A stretch of 64,000 bases of DNA from Deltaproteobacteria bacterium (GCA_040218735.1 JAVJQW010000003.1:32001-96000), one strand, 5' to 3'. Positions 17,924-33,227 are shown, numbered from the stretch's first letter. Notes: generated by a model not told the origin, from the letters alone. Program-made: numbers and translations.

Positions 17924-17984
17924 CGGATCAGCTTAGACGCGCGTCGTACCGGCGGACCACCCCGGGGGGCCGATGCGATGGTCG

Positions 17985-20900
17985 TCACACCCGACGACGG
18001 AACAAGAGCGGCAACACGAGGAGCAACAACGTCCACCCGCGCCCGCGCCCGCGCACACAGCGGCACCCCTGCTCGATCGGCGGCACCGGCGGCGGCGCGT
18101 TCACGAGCAGCGAGAACGGCGCCTGGGCGTAGCGGCCGCGGTCGTCGGTCACCGTCACGAGCACACTCACCACGCCGGTCTGCTGCGGCGTCCCGGCGAT
18201 GGTCAGGATCGGTGCGCCGGCGTTGGGATCGACCGTCCACATGACCCCCTGGTGGAACGCGGGGCCGAGCACGCGCCACGTCAGCGGCGGCTCGCCGCTG
18301 CGCGTCCTCAGCTCGACGGAGTACGGCTCGCCCGCGACGCCGAGCGGCAACGTGCTCGGCGTGATGCTGAAGCCCCCTTCGTGGAGGATCGTCAGCCGGA
18401 ACGTCGCGGTGTCGCTCGTCGCGCCCGCGCCGTTCTCCACCGCGTTCACGAGGAACTCACGCGTGCCCACGCCCTGCGGGATGCCGACGAGGCGCCCGCC
18501 CGGGGAGAGGACGATGCCGTCGGGCAGCGGCCCCGGCGAAGTGAACGTGACGCTCGACGTCGGCGTCTGTCCGATCACCTGCAGCTGATACGTGTACTCG
18601 TCGCCGAGCCGACCGTCCGGGAGGAGCGCCGCGACGATCGTGAGGCGTCCGGGCTCACCGACCGTGAGCACCAGATCCGCGCGCGCGGTATCGGTGCCGT
18701 CGGTGACCTCGACCGTCAGCTCGAAGATGCCGTCCTGACGCGGCACCCCCGTGAGGAGCCCCGACGGATCCATCTCGAGCCCGGGCGGCGGCGTGGTCAC
18801 CAGCGAGAACTGATAGCCGCCGGTCCCCCCCACCGCGACGATGCGCTGTAGCTGATCACTCGTCGCCCCCGCCGGCGCGGGCGGGTACGCGGCGCCGACC
18901 ACGCCGGGGAGCAGGTCGCGCGTGACGATCGCGATCCCCGCGCGCGGGTTCGCGACCTCCAGCGAGAACGTGCGCGTCGCCGAGACGCCGGCGCTGTCGA
19001 CCTGCAGCGTGACGTCCGACGTCACCTCCATCGTCGCGCGGCCGGAGATCTCGCCCGTCGCTGCGTCGAGGGTCAGGCCGTCGGGGAGCGCGCCGCCCGC
19101 GACGGACCAGGTGAAGCGCCCGTCGCCCCCCGCCGCGAAGACAAACGTCGTGTAGTCGACGCCGAGGTACGCACGCGGGAGCGACGCGGTGAGGACTTCG
19201 AGCTGACCGGTGCGAACGGTGAACGGCGCCGCGGCGACGCCGGTGTTCGCGAGGTCGTCGATCTCCAGGTGGTCGTTCGCAGGGTCGACGATCGCGCCGA
19301 GCTCGTAGCGCCCGGGGCGGACGTCGTTCGGGAGCGTGATGCTCCGGGTGATCGTCGCGGTGGCGGAGGGATCGAGCATCACGGTCCCCGCGTCGATCTC
19401 CAAGTCGTCGGCCGTGATGACGACGTTCTCGGACAGCCGCACCGACCACCCGGTGGTCTGACCGATGTTGCCGGTGTTCGCGAGGCGCAGCGTCACGTCG
19501 ATCGTCTCGCCGGGCGCGGCATCGGTCGGGGTGCTCTCGATGGAGACGACCTCGAAGTCGGGGCGGCGCGACGCGATCGTGAACGCGTCCAGCGTGACGG
19601 CGGTGTTGTTGGCTTCGTCGATCTCCGCGACGTCGTCGTCCGCGTCGACCACGAGGATCAGCCGGTAGTCCCCCGGCGGGGTCGGGAGTGGGACGGCGGT
19701 GGTCGCGGTGCGCACCCCCAGCTCGAACGGCGCGAGCGTCGTCGGCGCGGAGCGGTAGACGACGTGGCCGGTCTGCGTGGAGCCCTCGGGCACGAGGTGA
19801 AGCTCGTAGCGGAACGGGCCGAGCACCTGCGACGACAGCGAGTTGATCCGCACGTCGACGTCGAACGGCACCCCCTCGAACACCTGGTCGGGCGCGGTCA
19901 CCGCGGCGGCGACGAGCTCCGGGCCGACGTCCAGACGCGCGCGGAAGAACGCGTTCTCCAAGGCGGCGATATCGGTGCCCGAGCAGTTCGGCGTACACGG
20001 CGCGAGCGTGGCGCCGTTCGATCCCGTCGCGTCCTCGAACCCGATCGACGCCGACCACGCGAGCGGATCCGTCATGCTCAGCACCGGCCCGTAGTGGATC
20101 TCGAAGCGCCCCTCGCGCCCCTCGTACAGGCGCAACTGAACTTGCGGGCGCCCGCTCGTCGCGTTCCCGAGCACGTGCGCGTCGGTGTACTGCAGCACGA
20201 GCACACGGTTCGGCGCGACACCGTCCACACCGAAGTCGATCACCGTCGCGCGGAGGTCGTCCCAGATCGGCGCGATCACCGCGTCCGGCGCGATGCTGCT
20301 GGGGAAGAGGGTGTTGTTGAAGCCAACCGGCCCCGCACCGAACGTGATGTACCCGTTCGTCGTCGCGCGAAGCTGCGTGTACGAGCCACCGAAGTACGTA
20401 AACGCGAACGGGATCGGGATGATGACCTCCTCGTCGTCGTACAGCGGCGGCGGGAACGTCACCTGCGTCAGGTCGCTGCGCGCGACGTACGGCGCGGCGA
20501 TCGTCTCGGTGAAGTACGCCTGCGCCGACGCCTCGTTGGTCACGAGCAGCATCAGCAAGACCCACGGCCACCGCCGCCTCCGGCGCAGCAGCAGCGCACC
20601 GAGCAGCAACCAGGCCCACGCGACGCCGCGGCCCGACGAAGCCTGGCACCCGCACCCGTCGTCGCCGCCACCGTTGGTCGGCGTGATGCGCTCCGACACC
20701 GAGATGCCGAACGCCCGCACGCTCTGCTGACCGAGGTCGTCCTGCGCGAGCACGACGAAGCTGAAGACCCCCACCGAGCGCGGCTCGCCGGTGATCTTGC
20801 CCAGGCCGTCCATCGCGAGCCCCGGCGGCAGGTTGCCGGAGAGGATCGACAGCGTCGGTCGCGCCTGCGCGTTCGCGGCGACCACGTCGATCTGCACCTC

Positions 20901-23900
20901 GGCGCCGTCCTCCTCGACGTACGCTTCGCCGACGAATGCGTCCGGCAGCCCGTTGGTCGAAAAGATCACGCCGTCCTGTTCGCGGATCGTGACGACGAAG
21001 CGGTTCACGTCGAAGTCGCCGCGCCCGTCCGTCACGCGCATCGTGAACGAGTACTCACCGACGCGCGATGGCGTCCCGTAGATCCGCCCGCGCTCGTGGA
21101 GCAGGCCCTCGGGCAACGTCCCCGACACGAGTCCGAACGTGAACGGCGAGACGCCGGACCCCATCGCGGCGCGGACCGTCTCGTCGTACACCGAGCCGAT
21201 CCGTCCGTCCGGGAGGAGCTCGGAGGAGAACCGCACCGTGTCCTGCGACGTCACCACGCGGAGCGCGAGCTCGGCCTCCGCGAAGCCGCCCGTCGCGTCC
21301 TCGACGCGCACCACGAGGTTCGACAGCGCCGTCGCCCCCGGCGTCCCCGAGATGACACCGTCGGCGTCGAGCGTGAGCCCCGGCGGCAAGCCGTCCGCGC
21401 CGACCTCCGACCAGACGAACGGCGGCACCCCGCCGAACGCGGTGAGCGGGTAGCGGTACGGCCGACCGAGGAAGCCAGGCGGCAGCGCGCGCGTGATCAC
21501 CGAGACCTCGACGGCGGTCGGGGCGACGAGCAGGTTGTAGCGGCGCTCCGCGATCAACACGCCGTCGGTGACACGCACCGTGACGTCGAAGAGGCCCTCG
21601 ACCTCGGGGGTGCCGGCGAGCCGGCCACTCGCGTCGAGCGCGAGGCCGGTCGGCAACGCACCGTCCGCGACCGACCACATGAGCGGCCCCGTGCCGCCGC
21701 GCGCGGCGAGCACCACGTCGTACTCGACGGCGAGCGTCGCGAGCGGGAGCGCGTCGGTGAGGATCGTCAGCCCGCTCGGGAGCACCTCGACGGTCGTGGC
21801 CGAGACGGCGACGTTGTTCGACTCCACCAGCTCCGCGACGAGGTCGTCCGGATCCGCAACGACCCCCACGTAGTACGGGCCGGGCGCGAGCGTGGACGGG
21901 ACGACGAACACGTCCACGCGGGTGTGCGCCGTCCCGGCGGAGACGGTGACGGTGCGGCGGCCGGCGCGCACGTCGTTGGCGTCGATCGTGTCGTCGACGG
22001 AGAAGACCACCTCGTACTCCGCGGCGGCGTCCGCGTTGCCGCCGTTGTTGATCATGCGCGCGATCGACATCGACTCCCCGGCGGCCGCGAGCGGCGGCAG
22101 CTCGACGCGCGTCGGCGCGAGGTCCGCGGCGGGGTCGCGCACCTGCACCGGGTCCATGGTGCGCGCGATGTTGTTGTTCGGATTGTCCTCGGCGACGGTA
22201 CTGAGTGTATTCGTGATGACACCGACGTAGTACGGCCCGACCGCGAGCATCGCGGGCACGACGACGTTGTGCACGAACGTCCGACGCTCGCCGGGCGCGA
22301 GGCTGACGGGGCCGAACGAAGCCAGCTCGATGTCCGAGATCGCGCTGATGAGCTGGTTGTCGGAGAGGTAGATCGCGTACGAGAAGCCGTTGGCGTCGGC
22401 GCCGCCGCCGTTTTCGATGTCGACCGACACCTCGAGCACCTCCGCGCGGAACGCAAACGGACCAGGCACGGTGAGCGAGCGCGCGATGATGTCGGCGAGG
22501 CGCACCTCGATCGTCGTGGTGCTCACGCCGACGTTGTTCGTCTCGTCGGCCTCCACGATCGTGTCGTTCGGATCCACTTCGACGATCACGTAGAAGTGAC
22601 CGCCCGTGATGTCGGCCGGCACCGTGAACGTGGTGTCGAAGCGCGTCGCCGGCGTCGCCGGGACCGCGACGGTCGCCGACGCGACGAGGCGATCCTGGGC
22701 GTCGAGCGTCGTGTCCGCCGAGAAGTAGATCGCGTACGGCACGGCGGGGTGCTCACCGCCAAAGTTGAGGAGGTCGACGGGGACGGTGAGCGATTGGTCG
22801 GGGCCGGTCTCGGCCGGCGCGGACACCGAAGCGCCGAAGTCGAGGCCGACCAGGAAGCGGTCCGTGAAGCGCGACGTGTTGTTGGTCTCGATCGTCTCGG
22901 CGACGACGTCGTTCGGGTCGACGATCGCGCCGATCGAATAGTACCCGGACGCCACCACCGGGACGGTCGTCGCGAGGGTCTGCGACGCGGCGGCTCCTGC
23001 GCCGAGGTTGGCGAACGACACGGTCCCGAGGAGCGTGTCGCTCGCTTCGATCGTCCCGTCGGTCGAGAAGTAGACGTTGGCGTCGAACCCCGCGCCGGTC
23101 GGTGCGTTGCCGAGGTTGCGTGCGGTGACGGACACCGAGATCGCGGCGCCGGGCGCGCCGCCGCTCGGCGGTGCGCCGTTGACGGTCAGCTCGGGGCCGA
23201 CGGGGATGACGAACTGAATCACCTGGTCGGTGAGGGACTGGAGTGTGGTGTACGGGCAGAAGTCCGGCGCGACGTCCGCGCACGGTTCGCCGACGAGGCC
23301 GAGGCCGCCCGTGTGGTCCTCGATGCCCATCGTGCCGCTCCACTCGCTGTCGCCGTTGGTGTTCGACACGTACGGGCCGTAGTGCATCGTCACGGCGCCG
23401 GTGAGCTCTTCGAGCCGCACTTGGAACGTCCCGGTCGCGGCGGTCGTCGCCGGGAAGTGCTTCACGTTGCTGTACTCGACGACGAACGAGCGCTGGCCCG
23501 CCGTCCCCTGCGTGGCGTAGCGGACCTGGCCGCCGTCGAGGTGCAGGTCGTCCCACCACAGCGCGATGATGCGATCCGGATCCGCGGTGGCCGGGAGGCC
23601 CCCCGCGCCCGCGCCGACGTTCGGGTAGTCGACGCAGCGGTTGTTGGAGCACTGGGTGCCGAAGGTCAGCGAGCAGTCGAGGAGTGAGTTGCAGGAGGAC
23701 GCGAGGATCAACGCGCCGTTCGTGCTGATGGTGACGTGGGTATACGTCTGGCCGAAGTACTCGAACGTGAAGCCGAGCGGGACCTGCAGGACGTCGTCGT
23801 CCGGCGTCGGGAAGTTGGCGACGGTCGCGCCGGTGAGCGGCACGTAGGGGGCCGCGTACTGCGTCCGAATGTAGCCGCCGGTCTGCGCGACGGCGTGGGT

Positions 23901-23957
23901 CGTCACGACCGAGAGGACGAGCCCGACGAGGGCGCTCAGAGTTCGTTGCGCGCGCAC
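17985..23957 (-). CDS. Giant surface 'polyprotein' 1 (1990 aa): two head/CARDB/He_PIG units, each ending in MYXO-CTERM, with an internal signal peptide
   Basis: Signal ...VTTHAVA-Q; head VPLGFTFEYFGQTYTHVTISTNG; 4 CARDB + 4 He_PIG; internal GCGC...WAWLLLGALLLRRRRRWPWVLLMLLVTNEASA-Q; second head, 2 CARDB + 4 He_PIG; terminal GCRC...LLLLVLPLLFRRRV. Confidence 0.88.
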   Translation of the reverse strand: MRAQRTLSALVGLVLSVVTTHAVAQTGGYIRTQYAAPYVPLTGATVANFPTPDDDVLQVPLGFTFEYFGQTYTHVTISTNGALILASSCNSLLDCSLTFGTQCSNNRCVDYPNVGAGAGGLPATADPDRIIALWWDDLHLDGGQVRYATQGTAGQRSFVVEYSNVKHFPATTAATGTFQVRLEELTGAVTMHYGPYVSNTNGDSEWSGTMGIEDHTGGLGLVGEPCADVAPDFCPYTTLQSLTDQVIQFVIPVGPELTVNGAPPSGGAPGAAISVSVTARNLGNAPTGAGFDANVYFSTDGTIEASDTLLGTVSFANLGAGAAASQTLATTVPVVASGYYSIGAIVDPNDVVAETIETNNTSRFTDRFLVGLDFGASVSAPAETGPDQSLTVPVDLLNFGGEHPAVPYAIYFSADTTLDAQDRLVASATVAVPATPATRFDTTFTVPADITGGHFYVIVEVDPNDTIVEADETNNVGVSTTTIEVRLADIIARSLTVPGPFAFRAEVLEVSVDIENGGGADANGFSYAIYLSDNQLISAISDIELASFGPVSLAPGERRTFVHNVVVPAMLAVGPYYVGVITNTLSTVAEDNPNNNIARTMDPVQVRDPAADLAPTRVELPPLAAAGESMSIARMINNGGNADAAAEYEVVFSVDDTIDANDVRAGRRTVTVSAGTAHTRVDVFVVPSTLAPGPYYVGVVADPDDLVAELVESNNVAVSATTVEVLPSGLTILTDALPLATLAVEYDVVLAARGGTGPLMWSVADGALPTGLALDASGRLAGTPEVEGLFDVTVRVTDGVLIAERRYNLLVAPTAVEVSVITRALPPGFLGRPYRYPLTAFGGVPPFVWSEVGADGLPPGLTLDADGVISGTPGATALSNLVVRVEDATGGFAEAELALRVVTSQDTVRFSSELLPDGRIGSVYDETVRAAMGSGVSPFTFGLVSGTLPEGLLHERGRIYGTPSRVGEYSFTMRVTDGRGDFDVNRFVVTIREQDGVIFSTNGLPDAFVGEAYVEEDGAEVQIDVVAANAQARPTLSILSGNLPPGLAMDGLGKITGEPRSVGVFSFVVLAQDDLGQQSVRAFGISVSERITPTNGGGDDGCGCQASSGRGVAWAWLLLGALLLRRRRRWPWVLLMLLVTNEASAQAYFTETIAAPYVARSDLTQVTFPPPLYDDEEVIIPIPFAFTYFGGSYTQLRATTNGYITFGAGPVGFNNTLFPSSIAPDAVIAPIWDDLRATVIDFGVDGVAPNRVLVLQYTDAHVLGNATSGRPQVQLRLYEGREGRFEIHYGPVLSMTDPLAWSASIGFEDATGSNGATLAPCTPNCSGTDIAALENAFFRARLDVGPELVAAAVTAPDQVFEGVPFDVDVRINSLSSQVLGPFRYELHLVPEGSTQTGHVVYRSAPTTLAPFELGVRTATTAVPLPTPPGDYRLILVVDADDDVAEIDEANNTAVTLDAFTIASRRPDFEVVSIESTPTDAAPGETIDVTLRLANTGNIGQTTGWSVRLSENVVITADDLEIDAGTVMLDPSATATITRSITLPNDVRPGRYELGAIVDPANDHLEIDDLANTGVAAAPFTVRTGQLEVLTASLPRAYLGVDYTTFVFAAGGDGRFTWSVAGGALPDGLTLDAATGEISGRATMEVTSDVTLQVDSAGVSATRTFSLEVANPRAGIAIVTRDLLPGVVGAAYPPAPAGATSDQLQRIVAVGGTGGYQFSLVTTPPPGLEMDPSGLLTGVPRQDGIFELTVEVTDGTDTARADLVLTVGEPGRLTIVAALLPDGRLGDEYTYQLQVIGQTPTSSVTFTSPGPLPDGIVLSPGGRLVGIPQGVGTREFLVNAVENGAGATSDTATFRLTILHEGGFSITPSTLPLGVAGEPYSVELRTRSGEPPLTWRVLGPAFHQGVMWTVDPNAGAPILTIAGTPQQTGVVSVLVTVTDDRGRYAQAPFSLLVNAPPPVPPIEQGCRCVRGRGRGWTLLLLVLPLLFRRRV
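20520..20670 (-). other. Internal MYXO-CTERM + signal-peptide junction of polyprotein 1
   Basis: GGGDDGCGCQASSGRGVAWAWLLLGALLLRRRRRWPWVLLMLLVTNEASAQ with no stop codon. Confidence 0.85.
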
Positions 23958-24015
23958 GAGAGCTGGGAGCGTAAGCCCGCCGACACACGACCGTCGAGGG
24001 CGGATCGGCCGGTGC

Positions 24016-26484
24016 TCAACGAACGCGGCGCGGACGAACGGGGATCAGGAGGAGCAGGAGCAACAGGCTCCAGGCGGCCCCGCGCCGTGACGTCGTGGTG
24101 CACCCGCAGCCGCCCTCCTCCTCCACGGGCGGCGGCGGGTCGACCACCACGAGCGGGAACACCGCCTCCGCGACGCGGAGGTTCTTGTCGGTACAGCGCA
24201 CCGTGAACGGCCACGTCCCGCGCGCTTCGGGGACGCCACGAATGAAGAGCGCGTTCGTGGTCTCGTCGCCGTCCTTCTGCGTCGACGTGAGGCCGGGCGG
24301 CAGGAACCCTTCGCTGCGCACGACCTCGCAGAGGAACGGACGCGCGCCGCCGTTGACCTCGATCGTCACGTCGTAGTCCGCACCGAGGACGGCTTCGGGG
24401 ATCCGGTCGGTCGTGATGCGCAACAGGCCGTCGGAGCGCACCACGAGCTCGAGCAGCGAGGTGTCGGTCTGTCCCGCCGCGTCCGTCGCCTGCACCAGGA
24501 ACCGCTGCGGGCCGGCGAGCTCCGGGATGCCGTTCACGAGCCCCTCCTCCGCCACGACGATCCCCGGCGGCAGCTCCGTGAGCACGCGCCACCTGAGCGG
24601 CGGCGTCCCACCCGACGCAAACAGCGTCTGGGTGTAGGGCTCCTGGAGCGTCGCGTCGGGGAGCGCGCCGCTCACGACGGTGAGGTTCCCGGGCGCGCGC
24701 ACCTCGAGGCTGTACGCGACGGTCGCCGTGTTTGCGTCTTCGTCGCTGACCTCGACCGTGAACACCGCGATCCCGGAGGCCCCGGGGACGCCGACGACGT
24801 GCCCGTCGGTGCGCAGCTCGAGGCCGTCCGTCGGGCGCCCCGCGATCGTGCGGAAGCGGTACGGCGGGCGTCCGCCGACGGCGCGCAGCGCGACGTCGTA
24901 GTCCGCGCCGACGTAGCCGTCGGGGAGGTCGCGGGTGACGAGTCGGAGGGGGTAGTCGGGGTCGAGCACGGTGAGCGTGAAGTCGGCAGTGCTCGTCACG
25001 TCACCGCTGCGCACGCGGACGGAGATCGGGTGGTCGCCGACGCCGAGGGGCACGCCGTAGATGCGCCCTCCTTGGAACGCCACGCCGGGCGGGACCGTTC
25101 CACTGGATAGACTCCACACAAAAGAACCATCGCCGCCGGCGGCTTCGAGGGTCACGTCGTAGGGGACGCCGAGGACGGCCACGGGGAGCGACGGAGTCAG
25201 GACCGCGACGTCGTCGGAGATCACCGTCACGGTTTGGCCTGACGCGAGGATGTTGTTCCGTTCGTCGAGCTCCGCGACCGCAAACGCAGGGTCGACGACG
25301 AGGCCGAGGCGGTAGCGGCCGGTCGGGAGCTCGGGGAGCGTCGGGGTGATCGTGGCGGAGCTCGATTCGAGTGAGTCGAGCGTGTACGTCGCGACCGGCC
25401 CGAGGCGGTGGTCCCAGAGGGAGATGGTGTCGTTCTTCGAGAGCACGACCTGCGCGTCGAACGTCGCGGGGACGTTGCCGAAGTTGTCGACGGTGTACGT
25501 CAGCTCGAGCGTCCCACCCGGCGCCGCCGTGGAGGCGCGCGGGACGATGCGTCGCGCCCGAAGGTCCGGGCCGCGCCCGTCGATCGACACCACCCCCGAG
25601 AAGGCGACGTTGTTCGTCTCGTCGATCTCCGCGATCACGTCGGCGGCGTCGATGGTGATCGCGACGCGGTAGTCACCGTCCTGCGTGGCGATCGGTACGA
25701 GCAGATCGAACGACGCCTCCTGCGTCGCGAACCCCGGGAGCGTGACGGGGCCCGACGTGTAGAGCACCGGCGCTCCGACCGTCGACGTCGCCGCAGGGTC
25801 GAGCAGCTGCGCCTGGAACGTGAACGGCCCGAGCGGCATCCCGTGGCGGCTCGCGAGGCGCACCGTGACGGGCAGCGGCCGGCCCGCGACGGTGGTCTCG
25901 TCGGTGCTCACCGCGGTGACGGTGAGATCCTCGCCGATGTCCTCCAGGATCGTGATCTTCGTGTCCTGCAGCGACTGCACCTGCCCGGTGGAGCACGGCG
26001 TCGCGCCGACACACGGCCCGACGAACATCCCCTGGCTCGGGCTCGGCGCTTCGATCCCGATGCGCGCCATGAAGTCAGTGAAGTTGCCGGGCACGTTGAT
26101 CCCCGGGCGCGCCTCGCCGTAGCGCATCTCGATCGTGGAGCGGGCGCCTTCGTAGAGCGTCACCGAGAAATCGACGTCACTCGCCATCGTGTCGTCGGCG
26201 AAGTGCCGAACGTTGCGCCACTCGATCGTGACGCGCCCCGCACCCGGCGTGACGTCGACCTCGTAGTAGATGCCGACGCCCGCGTTCACGAAGCCGACGC
26301 ACCCGTTCACGCTCGAGCACCAGTCGGCCCACAGCGGCGCGACGTAGCCGTTCGGAAAGTCGGTGCTGGGGTTCGTCGCCGGCGGCAGGTGGTAGCCGTT
26401 GGCGTTGTCGAGGACGGAGACCCAGCCGTTTGCGTTGACCCAGATCGTGCTGTACGCCCCGCCGTACAGCGTCACCGAAAAGGG
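24016..26484 (-). CDS. Unit B of surface polyprotein 2 (head, 2 CARDB, 4 He_PIG, MYXO-CTERM); -1 frame relative to unit A, no own signal peptide or start
   Basis: PFSVTLYGGAYSTIWVNANGWVS continues the head domain begun in the upstream frame (QTEPIQLPF); ends GCGCTTTSRRGAAWSLLLLLLLIPVRPRRVR. Confidence 0.8.
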   Translation of the reverse strand, partial: PFSVTLYGGAYSTIWVNANGWVSVLDNANGYHLPPATNPSTDFPNGYVAPLWADWCSSVNGCVGFVNAGVGIYYEVDVTPGAGRVTIEWRNVRHFADDTMASDVDFSVTLYEGARSTIEMRYGEARPGINVPGNFTDFMARIGIEAPSPSQGMFVGPCVGATPCSTGQVQSLQDTKITILEDIGEDLTVTAVSTDETTVAGRPLPVTVRLASRHGMPLGPFTFQAQLLDPAATSTVGAPVLYTSGPVTLPGFATQEASFDLLVPIATQDGDYRVAITIDAADVIAEIDETNNVAFSGVVSIDGRGPDLRARRIVPRASTAAPGGTLELTYTVDNFGNVPATFDAQVVLSKNDTISLWDHRLGPVATYTLDSLESSSATITPTLPELPTGRYRLGLVVDPAFAVAELDERNNILASGQTVTVISDDVAVLTPSLPVAVLGVPYDVTLEAAGGDGSFVWSLSSGTVPPGVAFQGGRIYGVPLGVGDHPISVRVRSGDVTSTADFTLTVLDPDYPLRLVTRDLPDGYVGADYDVALRAVGGRPPYRFRTIAGRPTDGLELRTDGHVVGVPGASGIAVFTVEVSDEDANTATVAYSLEVRAPGNLTVVSGALPDATLQEPYTQTLFASGGTPPLRWRVLTELPPGIVVAEEGLVNGIPELAGPQRFLVQATDAAGQTDTSLLELVVRSDGLLRITTDRIPEAVLGADYDVTIEVNGGARPFLCEVVRSEGFLPPGLTSTQKDGDETTNALFIRGVPEARGTWPFTVRCTDKNLRVAEAVFPLVVVDPPPPVEEEGGCGCTTTSRRGAAWSLLLLLLLIPVRPRRVR

Positions 26485-26499
26485 AGCTGGATGGGCTCC
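26449..26499 (-). other. Candidate -1 frameshift cassette (or single-base deletion)
   Basis: Minus strand: GGAG (26499-26496), 11 nt, C_CCT_TTT (26484-26478), 7 nt containing the zero-frame TGA, then hairpin GCTGTACG-GCGGGG-CGTACAGC (26470-26449). Confidence 0.45.
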
Positions 26500-29400
26500 G
26501 TCTGACCGTCGCCGAGCCCCGGCACCATCTCGACCGCACCCGGGCCGAGGTGGACGTAGGGCTCCGGCTCCGTGAGCACCTGGTACGGCGTCTGCGCCGA
26601 CGCCGTGGAGGTGAACAAGACGAAGAGCAGACCAAGCCACGAGCGTCGACGGATCAGCGGGACGAGGAGGAGCAGCAGCCCCCAAGCCGCCGCGCCGCTG
26701 CGACGCGAGGTCGTGCACCCGCACCCGTCGCCGCCGGGGCCGGTGGTGTCGGCGTTGGGATCGCGTACGACGATCGCGAGCGCCTGGCGGCGGGTGTCGT
26801 TGGCGTCGGTGCGCGCGAACGCGACGAACGCGTAGGAGCCGGCTTCGGTCGGCGTGCCGCCGATGATGCCGGTCGACGCTTCGAGTGTGAGCCCCGGCGG
26901 GAGCTCACCCAGCACGACGGACCAGGTGACGTCGGTGGCGGAGGCACGAAGGCGAACCGCCTCGCCGCCCTCCGCCGCGTACGGCTGGTTGAGCGTGGCC
27001 TCGGGGAGCGCGGAGTCCGCGTCCGTGCCCGTGACGATCCTGAGCACCCCCTCGGGCGAGACCTCGAGCACGTACGCGTTGCGATCGATGAGCCCCGCGG
27101 TGTCACGAACCTCGACGAGCAGCGGATAGTCTCCCGCGGTGGTCGGCGTGCCGGTGAAGAGCGCGCCGTTGTCGTCGAAAGTCAGGCCGGGCACCTCGCC
27201 ATCGATGCGCCAGGTGTACGGCGTGCCGCCGCCGACCGCGGTGAACTCGAACGTGTACGGCATCCCGACGATCCCGCCCGCGACGTCCGCCTGCTGAATG
27301 CTCACGGAGGTCCGTGCGTCGACGACGTCGAGCGAGAGCGTCCCCCGCACCGTGGTGCCGTTCGCGTCGGTCACGGAGATCTCGAAGTTGAACGCGTTGA
27401 TCAGCTGCGGCTCGCCACCGAGGATGCCGTCGGAGTCGAGCGCGAGCCCGAAGGGCAGCGGATCGATCGACCGCCACACGTAGGGCGGGTTGCCGCCCAC
27501 CGCGACGAGCTCGACGAAGTACCGCTCCAGCGCGAGCGCCGGCGGGAGCCGCGACGACACCAGCGTCAGCGGGATCGTCGGACCCGAGACGATCAGCGTG
27601 TAACTTCGCGTCGCGAACAAGTCGCCGCTGGTCACCGTGATGTCGAACGGGTGCGAACCCTCCGCGCTCATCGCGGGGGTGCCGCTGATCTCGGCGGTCG
27701 CGGCTTCGAACGTGAGGCCAGCCGGCGGCTGCCCGCCGCCCCAATCGATCGACCACGTGTACGGATCGGACCCGCCGACCGCTGCGAAGCGTCGCGCGTA
27801 GGGCACTCCGAACACCGCGTTCGGCGGCGGGGCGGAGACGACGGCGAGGTCGGTCCCCTCGATGACGATCGACGCCGACGCCAGGGTGTTGTTCTGCTCG
27901 AACGTCTCGTCCGCGACGTCGTCCGGGTCGACGATCGCGCCGATGTAATACGTGCCCGACGGTGTGTCGGCGGGGAGCGGGATCCACTCCGCGACGGTGT
28001 CGATGTCCGACGGGTCCAGCGTCACGGGCATCGCCGTCTCGAAGAGCGTGAGGTCGTCGGTGGTGATGCCGGGGTTGGTCGACAGCACGATGCGCAGCGT
28101 CGCGTCGCCGGAAGCGTTGCCGAGGTTCGCGTAGGTGACCGACACCGGCGTGGTCTCTCCGGCGACGGCGCTCGACACCGTGTCGACGGTGAGCGGCACG
28201 AGGTCGGGCGAAGGATCGCGCACCTCGATCGTCTGCGGGCGGACCTCGGTGTTGTTGGTCTCGAGCGACTCGGGCACCGAGTCCTGACAGTCGTAGACGG
28301 CCGCGATGTACCAAGTGCCGGGCGTCGTCCCCGGCGGGATCGTCGGCTCGAGGAGGAGCGTGCGGCGCTCGTTCGCCTGGAGCGTCATCGGCGCGGTCTC
28401 GAGGATCAGGTCGTCGGTGGCCACCGAGATGACCTGGTTGTCCGAGAGGAAGACACACACCGTGAAGTTGGTCGCGCGCGCGCCGCCGGCGTTTCGGAAC
28501 TCGGTGGAGAGCGGGTACGTCTCGCCGCGGAAGCCGAAGTCCCCGCCCACGAAATCGACGCCGACGAGGTCGGGGCCGCGCACGGAGACGGTGGTCGCGG
28601 AGACGAGGACGTTGTTCCCCTCGTCGAGCTCGATCTGTACGTCCTGATCGTCGAGCACCGCGACCGCGTAGTAACTCGGCGGGCTCGGCGGGATGTTCAG
28701 GGGCATCGTCACCGTGACGGTGCCGTTGAAGCGGAAGCCGTTCGGGAGCGTGACGGACGCGGGTCCCAGCGGGAGCGCCGTCATCATGTCGAAGCTCTGC
28801 GTCGGCGACAGATAGAGCTGCACGCCGATCGGTCCGGTGACCGGCGCGCCGTCGGAGCGCACCGAGAAGTTCACGTTGAACGGCTCGCCGGGGCCGCTGT
28901 CCATCGGCGGGAGGATCGTGCCGGTCAGGTCGGGCGCCGTGCCGAACGGGCCGTCGAAGGAGCGGTTGTTGTCCTCGAGCGCCTCCGTCACGGTGTTGCC
29001 GATGTCGACCTTCAGCGCGATGTAGAACTCGCCGAGCGCCGTCCCGGCGGGGACGGTGAGCGTGCGGGTCTGCTGTACCGAAGAGGCCGCCGCGAGGCCC
29101 GCGACGCCGAACGTTCCGAGGACCGCGCTGCCCGCCGTGCTCGTGTTCGTCGGCGCGAGGTAGATGCCGTACTGGAACGGGCCGACCGGCTGCTGGCCGC
29201 TGTTGAAGATCGTGACCTGCACGTCGAACATCTGGTTGGGACGTGCGCCGGCGGGCGCGGTGATCGTGCCGGTGAGCTCCGGCGCGACCGGGAGCTGGAT
29301 GTCGATCGTCTGCCCCTCGACCCAGTTCGGCGTCCCGCACCGCGAGGGGAGGCAGGCGCAGGCCGCGCCGCAGGTCGGGGACATCGACATGAGGTTGATG

Positions 29401-30020
29401 CCGTCGTTGCCGGTGGCGTTCTCGATCGCGGTGGTCCCGCCGTTCTGCGGGTTCCAGCCGCTGTTGGGCCCGAACTGGATCTGCACCGCGTTGGTGCCCT
29501 CGTAGAGGCGCACTTGGAAGTTCACCTGCGCCGCCGACGCGGAGAAACCGACGAAGTCCTCGTACTGAATCTCCATCACGCGCGACCCGGCGGTGCCGGT
29601 GACGCGCGATCGAATGACGCCGTTCGGCTGCGCGGTGAGGTCGTGCCACATCACGCCGATGAAGTTGTGCACGAGGTTGCCGGGGCTCGGCACGACGGAG
29701 GGCTGTCGCAGCGGTCCGAGCAACGTGCCGGGCGGCGGCGAGAAGCTCAGCAGCCCGTTCGTGTACGCGTGCACCGTGTTGTAGGTCTGGCCGTAGAAAA
29801 TGAACGGGAACGGCAGCGCGATCGCGACCGAGCCTTCGTCCTCGGCGCCGAACGATCCGTACGCGACGGGCGTGTGCGTCGTCCCGCCCGTGAACGCGAC
29901 GTACGTGCCGGTGGAGTGCGAGACTTGGTAGGGGGTCTGGGCGAGCGCGTTCGCGCTCAGCGTGAGGGTCGCGAGGCCCGCCAGCGCGAGGCGGGCCATC
30001 CAGTGCGTTTCGAGGCTCAT
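26472..30020 (-). CDS. Unit A + junction of surface polyprotein 2 (head, 4 CARDB, 4 He_PIG, MYXO-CTERM, second signal peptide, start of unit B)
   Basis: Signal MARLALAGLATLTLSANALA-Q (start 30020 or 29999); IALPFPFIFYGQTYNTVHAYTNG; junction GCGCTTSRRSGAAAWGLLLLLVPLIRRRSWLGLLFVLFTSTASA-Q; stops about 40 residues into unit B. Confidence 0.85.
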   Translation of the reverse strand: MSLETHWMARLALAGLATLTLSANALAQTPYQVSHSTGTYVAFTGGTTHTPVAYGSFGAEDEGSVAIALPFPFIFYGQTYNTVHAYTNGLLSFSPPPGTLLGPLRQPSVVPSPGNLVHNFIGVMWHDLTAQPNGVIRSRVTGTAGSRVMEIQYEDFVGFSASAAQVNFQVRLYEGTNAVQIQFGPNSGWNPQNGGTTAIENATGNDGINLMSMSPTCGAACACLPSRCGTPNWVEGQTIDIQLPVAPELTGTITAPAGARPNQMFDVQVTIFNSGQQPVGPFQYGIYLAPTNTSTAGSAVLGTFGVAGLAAASSVQQTRTLTVPAGTALGEFYIALKVDIGNTVTEALEDNNRSFDGPFGTAPDLTGTILPPMDSGPGEPFNVNFSVRSDGAPVTGPIGVQLYLSPTQSFDMMTALPLGPASVTLPNGFRFNGTVTVTMPLNIPPSPPSYYAVAVLDDQDVQIELDEGNNVLVSATTVSVRGPDLVGVDFVGGDFGFRGETYPLSTEFRNAGGARATNFTVCVFLSDNQVISVATDDLILETAPMTLQANERRTLLLEPTIPPGTTPGTWYIAAVYDCQDSVPESLETNNTEVRPQTIEVRDPSPDLVPLTVDTVSSAVAGETTPVSVTYANLGNASGDATLRIVLSTNPGITTDDLTLFETAMPVTLDPSDIDTVAEWIPLPADTPSGTYYIGAIVDPDDVADETFEQNNTLASASIVIEGTDLAVVSAPPPNAVFGVPYARRFAAVGGSDPYTWSIDWGGGQPPAGLTFEAATAEISGTPAMSAEGSHPFDITVTSGDLFATRSYTLIVSGPTIPLTLVSSRLPPALALERYFVELVAVGGNPPYVWRSIDPLPFGLALDSDGILGGEPQLINAFNFEISVTDANGTTVRGTLSLDVVDARTSVSIQQADVAGGIVGMPYTFEFTAVGGGTPYTWRIDGEVPGLTFDDNGALFTGTPTTAGDYPLLVEVRDTAGLIDRNAYVLEVSPEGVLRIVTGTDADSALPEATLNQPYAAEGGEAVRLRASATDVTWSVVLGELPPGLTLEASTGIIGGTPTEAGSYAFVAFARTDANDTRRQALAIVVRDPNADTTGPGGDGCGCTTSRRSGAAAWGLLLLLVPLIRRRSWLGLLFVLFTSTASAQTPYQVLTEPEPYVHLGPGAVEMVPGLGDGQTEPIQLPFR

Positions 30021-30043
30021 CGGGGTGTCTCTTCGTTTCGCGG

Positions 30044-33000
30044 CTACAAACACTCGGCGCGGTAGGTGATGACGATCTCGGAACCGGGTTCGGGGATCGC
30101 GAGCGGCGCGAAGTTCAGGCTGTTGGTCATGTCGTCGTAGGTCCAGCGGACCTGCCCGGTCATCGAGGTCGCCGCGACGGGCACGCCGTCGATCAGCACC
30201 TGCACCGACGCGGGGATCGGTTGGTTGGAGAGGAAGAAGCGCGACTTGTAGCCGAAGACGGACAGGCCGAGGTTCTCCAGCGCGACCGCCCAGTCCGTCG
30301 TGCAGATCGACTCGACGACGCCGCCGGTCTGCTGCGCGGTGTCGACGTACCGGAAGCCGGGGTCACCGCTGGCGCACCCGTTGGGGACGTCGCCGACGAT
30401 CGCCGAGGCCGAGAACAGGTTGGTGTTCCTGAAGCCCTTGATGGCGCGGAAGTAGTTCACGAAGAAGTCGACGGTGTTCAGCGACTGGTCGTCCTCGTCG
30501 GCGATGAAGATCAGCGCGAGGTACGCGTCGGGGCGGAGGAAGCCGGCGTTCCACCCGGTGATGCGCGGGCTCGACAGTGCGTTGTACGCCGCCTGCAACC
30601 CGCGCTCGGCACCCGAGCCGTTGATGCCCTGCGTGGCGATCGCCCGGAACGCCGCCGCGGGGGACGGCTGCTCGTCCGGCGTGATCAGGCGCCAGTCGGG
30701 ATCGGTCTGCCCGGACGCGCTGCCGTCCGCGAAGTAACCGCAGCGGCCCTGCGCCATCCCCGGCGGCCGGTCGGCCGGCGGCGGGTTCGGGCAGGCGTCG
30801 CCGTCGGTCGAGACCACGGCGATGCGGTAGTCGAGCGCCTGCGCTTCGGCGAACGCGATGAAGCTGTCGAAGTTCTGCGTGAGGCTCGCCTGCTCCGCAG
30901 ACATCGAGCAGGAGTTGTCGATGACGAAGAGGATGTCGACCTCCGGCGTCTCGAGCTGCTCGAAGTGATCCTCGTTCGTCGCGACCTTCGCGCCTTCGCC
31001 GAACAGCGGGACGACGTAGGGCGTCGTCGCGCCCGACTCGTAGAGGTGGAAGTAACCGGTGTCGGCGCCGATCGCGCTCGGCGCGTAGCGCACCGACAGC
31101 TCGATCGAAGCGCCCGGCGCGATGGGCGCCCCCGGCGGGCCCGGCACGCCGGCCGGGATGTTCTCGATGATGAACTCACTCGTGACGCCGGGCGGGAGCT
31201 CGATGCGATCGATGTACGTGTTGGTCGCGCCGGTGTTGTAGACCGTGACGGTGCGCGCGCGCGTGGAGCAGCCGGGCTCGACGAGGCCGAAGTCGATCTC
31301 GTTGGGCGAGATCAGCAGCACGGACTCGGCGCCCTCTCCACTCAAGGCAACGCGCGGGTTCGAGTCGTTCGGGTCCGAGATGTAGAAGCCGAGCTCCCCG
31401 GTGTGATTGCCGACGTCGCGCGGCGTGTAGTCGACGAGCACCGTGAGCGTCTCGCCCGCGGCGAGCGTGAGGCTCGCGGGCGGTGCTTCGATCAGCGAGA
31501 AGGAGCGGTCCGAACCGGCGAGGACCTCGACGTCGCTGACCAGGCAGTCGTCGGTCCCGACGTTCTGCACGCGGAGCCCCTGCGGGATGCTGCGGAGCAC
31601 CTCCACGACACCGAACCCGAGCTGCGTCGGCGCGACGGTGTACTGACACGGCGGGAGCACGACGCCCTCCCCGCTCAGTGGGATGGTGACGACCGGCTCG
31701 TCGGCGTCGTCGCTCTCGATCACGAGCTCGGAGTCGATCACCCCTGCGTCCGTGACGGTGAGCGTGACCTCGACGAACTCGGCGCCGCCCGGCGGGATGG
31801 TGAGCGTGGTCTGGTCGGCGACGAAGAGGCCCGTTCCGGACGCGTCGGGATCGATGCGCGACACCGAGAGGTCGTCGAAGCCGAGGTTGGTCACGAGCAC
31901 GCGGCGTTTCTTCGCGGTGCCGACGGCGACCTGTCCGAACGCGAGGGTGTCCGGCGTGACGACGATGTTCGGACCGCCCGCCTCGCCGACCAGCGTGACG
32001 CGGGTGTCGTCGAGGTTGCGCTGCGCCTGCGGGTTGCTGCCCTTGATGAGCAACGCGCCGGTCGGCGACCGACCGACGTCCGCCTGCGTGGGTGAGAACG
32101 ACAGCGCGATCGAGAAGGTCTCGTTCGGCGGAAGCGTGCGCGCTTGGCCGGAGGAGGACACGACGCCGTACGCGCTCGCGGTGCCGGGCGCGAGCTCCCA
32201 GGACAGGAGCGTCACCGGTTCGTTGGCGATGTTCGCGCACGCGACCGTCCCGGTCACGGTGGCGCCCGGGTTGACCTGGCCGAAGTCGAGCGACGGCGGC
32301 GTGCAGGCGATCGCTTCGTTGGTGCCACGACCGACGAGCGGGACGTCGAGGTTGCACAGCGGACGATCGCAGTTGCCGATCGTCCAGCGGCCCATGTCTT
32401 CGCGATCACCCTGCGCGGGGTCCGGGACGTAGCGGAGCACCACGACGATGTTCTCGTCGGGCTCGAGCATCTCGCCCTCGGGGAGGAGCGAGCGCGAGCC
32501 CGGCTCGAGCTGCGGCGACATGAGCTCGAAGCGTCCGAGGCCGCCCTGGTTCACGAGCAGCGCGCGGCCGTCTTCGTCGACCTCCGTGAACAGCGGCGTC
32601 GCGACGGAGAGGCGGTTGTAGATCTCCACGCTGAGGGTGCGCGCCGATCCGATCAACACGTTGCCGAAGTCGATCGGGTTCGGGACGACCTCGATGCCGT
32701 GACGCACGCCGCGCGCGACGAGGTCGACGTCGCGCTCGATCGGCTGGCCGTTGTTGGTGGCGTTCGTGACGATCTTCAGCGAAGAGCGGACCAGGCCCTC
32801 GGTCGCGACGAAGGGGAGGAAGCGCACGGTGACCTCTTGGGTCTGGTCGGGTGCGAGTGTGAAGTTGACCGGGCTGACCGCGAACTCGTGGCCCTCGCCG
32901 GCGAAGTTGTTGCCGCGCTCGATGTCGGTGACCGTGAGGACACCGTCGCCGCTGTTGCGGACCATCAGGGCGTAGGGTTGGTCGATGCCGATCTGGACGT

Positions 33001-33139
33001 CGCCGAAGTCGACGGTCTCTTCGACCTCGAGATCGGGTTGGACGGCGTCGATGGACGTGCCGTCGCTGCACGCGAGCACCGCGGAAGCGATGGCGCCTAT
33101 GAGAAGGTGGGCGCCCCTCGATCGCCCGCGCTCGATCAT
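30044..33139 (-). CDS. Lipoprotein with about 6 ASH/choice-of-anchor-D domains and a C-terminal von Willebrand A domain
   Basis: GGAAAGG RBS; AIASAVLA-C lipobox; repeated (V/I/L)DFG domains; MIDAS motif DILFVIDNSCSM, DYRIAVVSTD, FLRPDAYLALIFIADEDDQS. Confidence 0.85.
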   Translation of the reverse strand: MIERGRSRGAHLLIGAIASAVLACSDGTSIDAVQPDLEVEETVDFGDVQIGIDQPYALMVRNSGDGVLTVTDIERGNNFAGEGHEFAVSPVNFTLAPDQTQEVTVRFLPFVATEGLVRSSLKIVTNATNNGQPIERDVDLVARGVRHGIEVVPNPIDFGNVLIGSARTLSVEIYNRLSVATPLFTEVDEDGRALLVNQGGLGRFELMSPQLEPGSRSLLPEGEMLEPDENIVVVLRYVPDPAQGDREDMGRWTIGNCDRPLCNLDVPLVGRGTNEAIACTPPSLDFGQVNPGATVTGTVACANIANEPVTLLSWELAPGTASAYGVVSSSGQARTLPPNETFSIALSFSPTQADVGRSPTGALLIKGSNPQAQRNLDDTRVTLVGEAGGPNIVVTPDTLAFGQVAVGTAKKRRVLVTNLGFDDLSVSRIDPDASGTGLFVADQTTLTIPPGGAEFVEVTLTVTDAGVIDSELVIESDDADEPVVTIPLSGEGVVLPPCQYTVAPTQLGFGVVEVLRSIPQGLRVQNVGTDDCLVSDVEVLAGSDRSFSLIEAPPASLTLAAGETLTVLVDYTPRDVGNHTGELGFYISDPNDSNPRVALSGEGAESVLLISPNEIDFGLVEPGCSTRARTVTVYNTGATNTYIDRIELPPGVTSEFIIENIPAGVPGPPGAPIAPGASIELSVRYAPSAIGADTGYFHLYESGATTPYVVPLFGEGAKVATNEDHFEQLETPEVDILFVIDNSCSMSAEQASLTQNFDSFIAFAEAQALDYRIAVVSTDGDACPNPPPADRPPGMAQGRCGYFADGSASGQTDPDWRLITPDEQPSPAAAFRAIATQGINGSGAERGLQAAYNALSSPRITGWNAGFLRPDAYLALIFIADEDDQSLNTVDFFVNYFRAIKGFRNTNLFSASAIVGDVPNGCASGDPGFRYVDTAQQTGGVVESICTTDWAVALENLGLSVFGYKSRFFLSNQPIPASVQVLIDGVPVAATSMTGQVRWTYDDMTNSLNFAPLAIPEPGSEIVITYRAECL

Positions 33140-33227
33140 CCGATTACGACCTTTCCGTGTTCGTCCCCAAGTCCTCGTCGGCGAACCGACCCCCAGCCGC
33201 GAGGATGACCGGCGGCCCAAACCGGGG

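Follow-up and report, generated by a model that had tools for sequence, protein, structure and literature searches.

Can a MYXO-CTERM signal that lies inside a reading frame, running directly into a signal peptide, join surface proteins that are made together but anchored apart, and what becomes of the downstream partner when the frame between them is broken? These questions are raised by a four-unit surface-protein array of Myxococcota, which occupies 17985-30020 on the minus strand of the window (the whole 64,000-nucleotide stretch of DNA analysed here, from genome G000) in the order A2, B2, A1, B1. Judged from the sequence, the array probably encodes processed polyproteins, with the second unit of paralogue 2 made by -1 ribosomal frameshifting. 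Its main parts are as follows.

17985..23957, minus strand: paralogue 1 (A1-B1), one unbroken ORF of 1990 aa (ORF and Pfam)
26472..30020, minus strand: paralogue 2, 0-frame ORF 'A2', holding unit A2, the junction and the first 38-40 B2 codons; 1182 aa (ORF; Pfam 4 CARDB and 4 He_PIG)
29940..30020, minus strand: N-terminal signal peptide of A2, residues 1-27, predicted cut before Q28 (heuristic; A-x-A↓Q..PY aligns with the internal junction sites)
24016..26484, minus strand: -1-frame continuation of B2, 822 codons and a stop, with the rest of the head, 2 CARDB, He_PIG repeats and the terminal MYXO-CTERM
24019..24117, minus strand: terminal MYXO-CTERM of B2 (TIGR03901, 23.1 bits in the protein scan, 27.6 bits in the genome scan)

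Each unit consists of a signal peptide, a head domain, CARDB domains (four in A, two in B), about four He_PIG Ig domains and a MYXO-CTERM. Matches to PF07705 (CARDB) and PF05345 (He_PIG) lie above the gathering score, and at E<=1 Pfam gives 4 CARDB and 4 He_PIG for A1 as well as A2, 2 and 4 for B1, and 2 and 3 for B2. The layout proposed by the first-pass annotation (a head with four or two CARDB and always four He_PIG) therefore holds, with the fourth He_PIG copy of B2 undetected by Pfam at E<=1. A profile of 17 heads searched against PDB sequences matches residues 7-192 of RemA (8gl6_D) with E = 2e-25; the Pfam NIDO match of the heads reaches an E of only 0.006-0.03, under the cut-off, and the head is at most weakly NIDO-like. 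RemA, the gliding-motility adhesin of Flavobacterium johnsoniae (PDB 8gl6 chain D), resembles the units in its head and in being a large multi-Ig surface protein with a C-terminal sorting signal. It differs in its type IX secretion C-terminal domain and in consisting of a single unit.

A is joined to B in one frame without a stop, throughout in paralogue 1 and as far as the break in A2. The hydrophobic core of the B signal peptide and an A-x-A↓Q site come directly after the Arg cluster that closes the MYXO-CTERM of A.

26643..26726, minus strand: internal MYXO-CTERM of A2, residues 1099-1126, with Cys motif, hydrophobic helix and Arg cluster (TIGR03901)
26595..26642, minus strand: internal signal-peptide h and c regions of B2, residues 1127-1142 (sequence, head alignment); predicted signal peptidase I site between 26595 and 26594, before Q1143
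20523..20660, minus strand: paralogue 1 junction, MYXO-CTERM at 20571-20660, then h and c regions at 20523-20570; predicted cut before Q1146 (TIGR03901, sequence)

Counting from the ATG at 30020 on the minus strand (a GTG upstream at 30053 is the other possible start), the junction string is found where it had been placed before, at residues 1099-1142 with Q at 1143. The reported lengths are likewise borne out, with 44 aa in paralogue 2 against 45 aa at residues 1100-1145 of the 1990-aa ORF. On TIGR03901, which has a curated cut-off of 20 bits, the internal site of A1 scores 21.3 bits in the protein scan and 25.7 bits in the genome scan; for A2 the scores are 16.2 bits (under the cut-off) and 22.3 bits (above it). 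These internal signals are not C-terminal, being followed by an in-frame tail of 861 aa in A1 and by 56 aa plus the -1 frame in A2.

To 34 distinct internal junctions gathered from relatives we compared 5000 random 40-aa windows of the same ORFs. All 34 junctions show the tripartite MYXO-CTERM (invariant Cys motif, transmembrane helix, Arg-rich cluster) and a 10-aa hydrophobic stretch with a Kyte-Doolittle mean of at least 1.8; such a stretch occurs in 6% of the random windows. An x-x-A↓Q site located 15-26 aa past the Arg cluster is seen in 29 junctions, against 8% of random windows. The signal-peptide features of the junction exceed chance. The signal-peptide calls are a heuristic reading of the sequence (n-region charge, h-region, small residues at -3/-1), and in the head alignment the internal cut sites share a column with those of N-terminal signal peptides.

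We propose that A is exported by Sec, and that its MYXO-CTERM helix would stop transfer with the Arg cluster staying in the cytoplasm. The following hydrophobic stretch may then restart translocation, the two segments forming a helical hairpin. Signal peptidase I would cleave before the Q and myxosortase at the Cys motif; given both cuts, a single translation product would therefore yield two surface proteins, anchored separately. The genome has a gene for the myxosortase core at G000:C18:18161-18478 (NF040914, 120.6 bits with the cut-off at 100).

Parts of this scheme have counterparts elsewhere. The Bradyrhizobium fbcH cytochrome b/c1 precursor is a bacterial membrane polyprotein that is split by signal peptidase at an internal signal peptide; it differs from the array in joining two unrelated respiratory subunits, and involves neither a sortase-type signal nor a frameshift. 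Abdul Halim and colleagues are said to have described in 2017 (J Bacteriol) an archaeosortase substrate whose tripartite sorting signal does not sit at the C terminus. As in the array, a sortase-type signal functions off the C terminus, but the system is the archaeal PGF-CTERM/ArtA one and, to our knowledge, the part past the signal is no second exported unit with its own signal peptide. An internal MYXO-CTERM also lies mid-ORF in MXAN_5598 of Myxococcus xanthus, which the authors, in the passages on this protein, take as a two-gene fusion whose N-terminal part is proposed to be processed and surface-anchored (PMC11980579). Unlike the array, it appears in those passages as a rare, atypical single case that combines a TraA-like adhesin with a TraB-like barrel/OmpA part, and they describe no repeated paralogous units, no ORFs of three or four units, no conserved signal-peptidase site and no frameshift.

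Whether the junction is unique to this assembly had been named as a check, and it is not: within the order, stop-free matches across it occur in 8 of 12 genera (8 of 20 genomes), and they are also found in one metagenome contig and in public proteins 1988-2241 aa long. Two relatives carry all four units in one frame: G011 has a single open frame of 4051 aa with three internal junctions, and G006 one of 3905 aa, also with three. The A1-B1 boundary is fused at all 7 assessable loci, the A2-B2 boundary at 6 of 8 orthologous loci and the B2-A1 boundary at 2 of 8. At the two other A2-B2 boundaries (G004 and L061) the units are separate genes; in G004 they meet in an ATGA stop/start overlap, and the signal peptide is an ordinary N-terminal one that aligns with the internal ones. 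The four-unit array is old. In a tree of 20 units from five genera each of the four array positions forms a clade (SH-aLRT 100), and positions 1 and 3 (A) as well as 2 and 4 (B) group together with support of 99 each. This is the grouping by type that had been predicted, and a tree of 41 units agrees: all 19 A-type or first units fall in one clade (support 100) and the second units within B-type clades.

It could be argued that the fused proteins are left uncut, each forming a giant envelope protein with periplasmic or surface halves that stay tethered to the inner membrane through the two-helix hairpin and the terminal MYXO-CTERM. We consider this rather unlikely. MYXO-CTERM is defined as a C-terminal signal, the published passages on one internal case discuss it without experiment, cleavage in the array is itself deduced, and the trees show the fused state to be old and stable. 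Nonetheless, in orthologues of the same boundary the two units are encoded by separate genes that both have a signal peptide and a MYXO-CTERM, and the splits fall exactly at the junction, an argument for cleavage of the fused form into individual surface proteins. Retention of A-x-A↓Q in 29 of the 34 junctions, at the very column where N-terminal signal peptides are cut, also counts against an uncut protein, because a plain membrane anchor needs no such site. The split orthologues also mean that fusion is not required. The first-pass annotation had argued for selection and against misassembly. Misassembly is excluded; as to selection, two orthologous A2-B2 boundaries are separate genes, and the fusion may simply have been tolerated.

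Paralogue 2 had been described as one frame of about 2000 aa at 24016-30020. Instead, this region holds two frames: the 0 frame, A2 with 1182 aa, stops at the TGA at 26474-26472, and B2 goes on in the -1 frame from 26484. A joined length of about 2001 aa is reached only with one base re-read at 26478-26484. This -1 break, overlooked in the first-pass annotation, changes what the paralogue 2 gene is. It lies 38 codons past the predicted signal-peptidase site, with 1 nt missing at codons 38-39 of mature B2; since the sequence of in-frame orthologues is CCN TTT TCG at this site, one base was lost in paralogue 2.

26478..26484, minus strand: slippery heptamer C_CCT_TTT in the 0 frame (Pro1180, Phe1181), site of the -1 break
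26472..26474, minus strand: 0-frame stop TGA, two codons past the slip site, overlapping a -1-frame GTG at 26475-26473 (GTGA)

A -1 slip on C_CCU_UUU would restore the ancestral LPFSV reading and lead into B2. A2 would then come from every ribosome and B2 from the slipping fraction only. In about 4000 codons scanned, C_CCT_TTT is the sole in-frame heptamer whose second triplet is of the A or U type; heptamer and break are not an independent coincidence, because a 1-nt loss in CCN-TTT-T yields a slippery heptamer automatically. In the sister species G001 a -1-frame stop sits 10 codons upstream, which confines a productive shift to a 12-codon window holding the heptamer. The genome encodes tRNA-Pro(GGG) and tRNA-Phe(GAA), and from this set we infer that CCU-to-CCC re-pairing is favourable. 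C_CC.U_UU.U falls in the class H_HH.U_UU.Y, which passages of PMC4066793 list among the most efficient in E. coli.

Alternatively, the 1-nt deletion might have inactivated the gene and left B2 as a dead remnant, its -1 frame open as stops are rare in 70% G+C DNA. The frame is broken, with a 0-frame stop two codons on, and long spurious ORFs are common in the window. Also, the terminal branch of B2 in the tree (0.75) is the longest of the four G000 units (the others 0.48-0.65), but it is exceeded by that of the G009 unit (0.85), which holds the same position and is in frame. Against decay, there is one internal gap event in 798 aligned B2 codons, and the NG86 omega of B2 between G000 and G001 (0.31) is like that of the three intact units (A2 0.28, A1 0.31, B1 0.35) at a dS of 0.56 (0.51-0.58 over the four units), although this between-species omega could partly predate the break. 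Among the strains that carry the break, 18 of 20 polymorphic sites downstream of it are synonymous when read in the B frame, compared with 2 and 0 when read in the other two (neutral P = 1.3e-9); the test spans the first 228 B2 codons and is the only clearly post-break one. B2 is still under purifying selection, and a dead remnant is very unlikely.

Separate translation of B2 by termination-reinitiation at the GTG at 26475-26473 we hold to be highly improbable. The GTGA overlap is kept in G000 and G001, and a stop/start overlap is used in the family (the ATGA of G004). However, the product would be without a signal peptide and its first 40 residues, and yet carry Ig-type surface domains and a terminal MYXO-CTERM. 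A purine-rich ribosome-binding stretch is absent within 15 nt upstream of the GTG. Moreover, the 0-frame signal peptide and the 38 codons from the signal-peptidase site to the slip site are under purifying selection (pN/pS = 0.30 in these codons), for which there would be no reason if they only formed a useless tail on A2.

Conservation of the break extends over one genus (two species) and four strain-level contig sets. G001, a separate assembly with 76-82% protein identity, has the identical break in identical surrounding sequence; contigs from the four runs compared, which come from four studies and were taken out of 20 listed, cover the site with 0 gaps. No in-frame allele is found in the six sources; the run data are contigs rather than raw reads, so that a minor in-frame variant would escape. 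It is thus scarcely credible that the break is an error of sequencing or assembly, or a phase-variable tract turning B2 on and off at the DNA level. The site is indeed a short homopolymer junction (C3/T4), of the kind where indel errors and slipped-strand events typically arise, but known phase-variable tracts are far longer than runs of 3-4 bases.

The preferred reading, in which B2 is reached by frameshifting, can be compared with the dnaX/IS3 type (PMC4066793, PMC5009743), in which an X_XXY_YYZ heptamer is preceded by a GGAG and followed, 5-9 nt further on, by a hairpin. As described there for IS3 orfAB, the fusion product would come only from shifting ribosomes, and the break also fits the 'corrective' frameshifting and 'pseudo-pseudogenes' discussed in a review. 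The dnaX/IS3 type concerns mobile-element or replication genes, whereas here a chromosomal surface-protein gene of Myxococcota is involved, with a slip site that stems from a 1-nt deletion in a formerly in-frame gene. Two candidate RNA elements flank this site.

26449..26470, minus strand: perfect 8-bp hairpin with a 6-nt loop, -12.5 kcal/mol, 7 nt past the T run (fold)
26483..26499, minus strand: 5-bp hairpin with GGAG, adjoining the T run on its upstream side, with the GGAG ending 11 nt ahead of the heptamer (kept in G001)

The 8-bp hairpin is present in G000 and G001 (two sequences, no covariation) and absent at the homologous place in four in-frame orthologues; such a hairpin 5-9 nt downstream occurs at 25 of 12029 positions in the two genes of the array. 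Over the 88 nt past the slip site folding is no better than in shuffles (z = +0.97), and the minimum-free-energy fold omits this hairpin. As a terminator-like site the upstream hairpin is not significant (8 against 5.2 +/- 2.3 in shuffles). Synonymous divergence is 0.15 in the first 62 B2 codons against a median of 0.38, and four of the lowest six among 379 windows cover B2 codons 23-103, with one A2 window equally low; this could reflect recombination between G000 and G001 and not an RNA element.

Another parallel is found in the alphavirus 6K/TF region, where, according to passages of bioRxiv 10.1101/790444, a -1 slip site is followed by a stem-loop and the hydrophobic segment ends 44-52 residues (Sindbis 45) before the slip. 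Here the hydrophobic part of the internal signal peptide closes with F1136, which is 44 residues ahead of the P-site slip codon and 45 ahead of the A-site one, within that range. The alphavirus structural polyprotein in those passages is, like the array, a membrane polyprotein of alternating stop-transfer and signal segments. It differs in belonging to a eukaryotic virus and using the ER translocon, with a short alternative protein as frameshift product; in the array the shift would be needed for a whole downstream unit, and any role of nascent-chain force is purely conjectural. Mechanical coupling of the frameshift to membrane insertion, together with use of the MYXO-CTERM/signal-peptide hairpin as a general polyprotein linker in the order, is a decidedly unlikely extension of our reading. 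If coupling were true, B2 would come preferentially from ribosomes with a nascent chain that is freshly back in contact with SecYEG. Synthesis of the downstream unit would then be licensed by export, in a bacterial chromosomal counterpart of the alphavirus mechanism.

Internal signals are found elsewhere in the genome as well. Out of 66 genome-wide MYXO-CTERM matches, 56 end at most 12 aa from a stop and 6 continue into a stretch that is signal-peptide-like or a lipobox. Internal signals make up about a tenth of the MYXO-CTERM signals of this genome, and the parts that they link are unrelated enzymes and lipoproteins.

Two adjacent paralogues on the minus strand contribute four units to one array, in the order A2, B2, A1, B1. 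The features concerned are as follows.

30044-33373, minus strand: protein of 1109 aa with ASH/HYDIN/Cep192-type Ig repeats, directly upstream of A2
24016-30020, minus strand: region of the finding, units A2 and B2
17985-23957, minus strand: paralogue 1 (units A1 and B1), an ORF of 1990 aa

In the A2 ORF (ATG at 30020) a junction string of 44 aa covers residues 1099-1142. It is made up of a Gly-Cys-Gly-Cys motif, a hydrophobic helix, then three Arg, another hydrophobic stretch and Ala-Ser-Ala; Gln comes next. The equivalent string of paralogue 1 measures 45 aa (residues 1100-1145). The MYXO-CTERM model (TIGR03901) matches the internal sites of both A2 and A1, and Pfam detects 4 CARDB and 4 He_PIG domains in A1 and A2 each, 2 and 4 in B1, and 2 and 3 in B2. 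The junction, where it lies and the domain layout thus agree with the first-pass annotation, which had placed the two junctions at nearly the same position within one shared layout. The same annotation had taken 24016-30020 as one joined frame, which it is not: A2 reads across the junction and about 40 further codons before ending at a TGA (26474-26472), and unit B2 resumes at 26484 in the -1 frame, reaching 24016.

A query of 501 aa spanning the paralogue 1 junction was compared with 20 genomes of the order, representing 12 genera. It matched without any stop in eight genomes, that is in eight of the 12 genera, at 30-47% identity and within open frames of 2015-4051 aa, so the junction is not unique to this assembly. 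Public protein collections likewise contain proteins of 1988-2241 aa with the same internal junction; another protein there, of 3090 aa, has two such junctions and the latter of them ends in a lipobox.

Orthologous arrays share the order A2, B2, A1, B1, and their boundaries vary, fused in some arrays and split in others. The four units form a single open frame with three internal junctions in two relatives, of 4051 aa in G011 (L054, C1:6036000-6054000) and of 3905 aa in G006 (L055, C1:3149000-3167000); the G006 array begins with an N-terminally short unit, and its final unit has no recognisable terminal MYXO-CTERM. Units are fused pairwise in G009 and on metagenome contig L062. A2 and B2 are separate genes in G004 and on metagenome contig L061; in G004 the A2 stop overlaps the B2 ATG (ATGA) and B2 carries an ordinary N-terminal signal peptide. 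A single-base change in such an overlap is enough to turn the split state into the fused one. On L061 a lone stop (nt 3802-3804) directly after the Arg cluster parts B2 from A1-B1 in the same frame. Counted per boundary, fusion is seen in six of eight loci for A2|B2, in all seven assessable loci for A1|B1 and in two of eight for B2|A1. The A1|B1 state of the sister species (G001) is unreadable because contigs end there; contigs C872, C312 and C878 of that genome end at or near array junction regions (the B2 head and either side of A1|B1). Judged from these comparisons, the stop-less junction is old, widespread and variably punctuated.

The relationships among the units were analysed with two trees (SH-aLRT support). 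In the first, based on 20 units from five genera, every array position forms a clade (support 100), and A types group together (99) as do B types (99), the A/A and B/B grouping that the first-pass annotation expected. A second tree with further fused pairs comprised 41 units, after setting aside four unparsed or incomplete ORFs and one partial unit; ORFs of G057 (from another family) and G012 could not be parsed into units and stayed outside both trees. Here a single clade (support 100) unites all 19 units of A type or in first place, and the second units fall into three B-type groups. By these trees the A-B pair was duplicated as a unit at least twice, always with A first, and the fused boundary is older than these duplications. 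The first-pass interpretation, in which selection and no artefact accounts for the persistence of the junction, is supported.

What the junction does can be framed by the biology of MYXO-CTERM proteins as given in the available text of PMC11980579. After export of such a protein by Sec, its MYXO-CTERM helix retains it in the inner membrane, the Arg cluster lying in the cytoplasm. The protein is probably lipidated on Cys; it is cleaved by the myxosortase MrtX and reaches the surface through the type II system. The link to the protease dates only from 2025. The same text notes rare internal motifs, such as that of MXAN_5598, whose N-terminal part is proposed to be processed still. For the present junction we propose a helical hairpin in which the MYXO-CTERM helix would act as stop-transfer, the Arg cluster would double as n-region of the following signal peptide, the second hydrophobic stretch would re-open translocation, and signal peptidase I would free the downstream unit. 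A myxosortase core domain is encoded in the source genome. When 17 head regions are aligned, N-terminal and internal signal peptides end at one column, just before a conserved Q-x-P-Y, and a site of the form x-x-A|Q lies 15-26 residues past the Arg cluster in 29 of 34 distinct junctions; the remaining five have another small-residue site or a lipobox, or are mis-parsed. It is possible that the fused protein stays uncut as a giant, which fits poorly with the split orthologues and with the conserved cleavage motif. That one boundary occurs both fused and split argues for the same mature proteins from either state, and hence for a cut of the fused product. The two versions of one boundary also provide natural controls for the cut sites of myxosortase and signal peptidase.

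RemA, the adhesin of Flavobacterium johnsoniae gliding (PDB 8gl6 chain D), is matched over its residues 7-192 by a profile built from the 17 head domains (E = 2e-25). A RemA-like head combined with CARDB and He_PIG repeats points to adhesin-like surface proteins.

The junction between MYXO-CTERM and signal peptide extends beyond this CARDB/He_PIG family. The source genome has 66 TIGR03901 matches over the cut-off, 56 of which end within 12 aa of a stop and six of which continue in frame into a stretch resembling a signal peptide or lipobox; a regular-expression scan added three more internal cases. Partners include an amidase_3 protein, a DUF11/DUF7948 protein, an alpha-amylase, an FGE-sulfatase-type domain, and a trypsin-like protease preceding a C-type-lectin lipoprotein. 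Unrelated ORFs with an internal junction (L063-L068) lie on the following source-genome contigs.

C39:68017-70863
C39:204924-211934
C56:22052-25246
C59:131100-135854
C42:460624-462591
C41:141399-143726

Matches with stops inside on C58, C21 and C61 were considered as recoding sites and proved to be ordinary gene ends followed by separate genes. A literature search for internal forms of five sorting signals returned PMC11980579 alone, nothing relevant came up on polyproteins that have both an internal signal peptide and a sorting signal, and no description of multi-unit MYXO-CTERM polyproteins was found in the literature searched (subscription journals and supplements lying outside it). As far as the sequences tell, the locus would be new in using an internal MYXO-CTERM as polyprotein linker, in a multi-unit family and across a whole order. 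This changes the earlier picture of internal motifs as rare oddities: in this order of Myxococcota, a sorting signal plus signal peptide would be a recurrent and ancient way to encode two, three or four surface proteins in a single translation unit.

The frame break between A2 and B2 is genuine and conserved beyond this assembly. G001 is an independent metagenome-assembled genome (76-82% protein identity to the source genome) and has the identical break in an identical 33-nt context, with many synonymous differences in the sequence upstream. Contigs from four runs of four studies (four of 20 listed runs, none of which is an RNA run) span 26472-26484 without a gap, and their 0-26 substitutions across the stretch indicate distinct strains. 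An exact-match search for the slip region, at its own length or one base longer, hit only the G001 contig in the genome-contig collection and nothing in the metagenome-contig collection. In-frame orthologues (G011, G006, G009, G004) encode Pro-Phe at the break position; G011 reads CCG TTT TCG, so the genus of the source genome and G001 has lost one base, the third in the Pro codon. If one base is read twice on C_CCT_TTT (26484-26478), the ancestral Leu-Pro-Phe-Ser-Val is restored.

On either side of the break, selection still acts on B2. Nei-Gojobori omega between the source genome and G001 is 0.28 for A2, 0.31 for B2, 0.31 for A1 and 0.35 for B1 (dS 0.51-0.58), and B2 shows one in-frame gap event in 798 aligned codons. 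Among strains that all carry the break, 20 sites vary between 25852 and 26377; read in the B frame 18 of them are synonymous, and read in the other frames 2 and 0 (P = 1.3e-9 under random change). In the 38 codons from signal-peptidase site to slip site pN/pS is 0.30 in the 0 frame. Taken together, these values indicate that B2 is maintained as a single protein, from its signal peptide through the first 38 residues to the remainder, although two frames encode it. In G001 a -1-frame stop lies 10 codons upstream, limiting a productive shift to a 12-codon window that contains the heptamer. Reinitiation at a GTG overlapping the A2 stop is an alternative route to B2; it would yield B2 without a signal peptide and gives no reason for the conservation of the signal peptide and N-terminus in the 0 frame. 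That B2 is a dead remnant is contradicted by the selection tests. Six independent sources agree on the short tract, contradicting both assembly error and phase variation.

Judged by comparison between genomes, the break is a strong candidate site of -1 ribosomal frameshifting. C_CC.U_UU.U belongs to the H_HH.U_UU.Y class, named in the available text of PMC4066793 among the most efficient in E. coli. The heptamer is the sole in-frame one with an A- or U-type second triplet in about 4000 codons of the two genes, and its codons are rare (TTT 11 of 154 Phe codons, CCT 7 of 311 Pro codons). As tRNA-Pro(GGG) and tRNA-Phe(GAA) are present, a CCU-to-CCC shift should improve pairing. In the source genome and G001 the T run is followed, at a distance of 7 nt, by a perfect 8-bp hairpin (-12.5 kcal/mol); none occurs at the homologous place in four in-frame genera, and such a hairpin 5-9 nt downstream is found for 25 of 12029 positions in the two genes. 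Upstream, a GGAG ends 11 nt before the heptamer and pairs with CUCC beside the T run in a 5-bp hairpin. Synonymous divergence reaches its minimum just past the slip site, at 0.15 over the first 62 codons (median 0.38), with four of the six lowest values among 379 windows falling there; this could be due to recombination. The heptamer itself arises automatically from a one-base deletion in CCN-TTT-T, and the 88 nt past the slip site fold no more stably than shuffles.

The hydrophobic part of the internal signal peptide ends 44-45 residues ahead of the slip codons, similar to the 44-52 in alphavirus structural polyproteins; 45 is the optimum for -1 frameshifting stimulated by translocon pulling force (both in the available text of bioRxiv 10.1101/790444). 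A functional link of this spacing to frameshifting seems unlikely, because the position also follows from the place of the conserved Pro-Phe in the head domain. Still, the geometry of membrane segment, 45 residues, slip site and hairpin would make nascent-chain control of frameshifting testable in bacteria. The break adds a comparative case in a chromosomal bacterial gene outside mobile elements, where accepted -1 cases are, to our knowledge, few. Such genes risk being annotated as pseudogenes or split wrongly.

A promoter scan of 16500-34500 gave 0 sites, terminator-like sites there were no more frequent than in shuffles, and Rfam (E<=1) gave two chance-level matches in 17000-34000, the slip site not among them. 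The upstream Ig-repeat gene (30044-33373) stops 23 nt before the A2 ATG, overlapping an alternative GTG start at 30053, and may form one operon with the array. A shorter, solitary family member of 673 aa (10105-12132, minus strand; 1 CARDB, 3 He_PIG, MYXO-CTERM-like tail at the end) is encoded 6 kb downstream of the array. On the other side, a DUF2330 protein (34642-36282, plus strand) ends in the genome's best-scoring MYXO-CTERM (36193-36282; 37.1 bits). The source genome comprises 11.6 Mb in 70 contigs at about 70% G+C; its relatives are annotated as Myxococcota, and strain-level relatives occur in metagenomes from biofloc, biofilm, sponge and aquaculture. Near the low-coordinate end of the window lie a bacterial alpha-2-macroglobulin of 1971 aa (372-6287, minus strand; MG2, bMG3, bMG5, bait region, A2M, bMG10) and a single 750-aa ORF (6343-8595, minus strand) with ArgJ (residues 65-450) and amino-acid-kinase (residues 493-725) domains, which adjoins a semialdehyde dehydrogenase gene and hence resembles a fused enzyme of arginine biosynthesis. 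A multihaem cytochrome (38152-39795, minus strand) with c554/c7/MtrC-like matches has as its neighbour a protein ending in a dockerin type I domain (36322-38127, plus strand).
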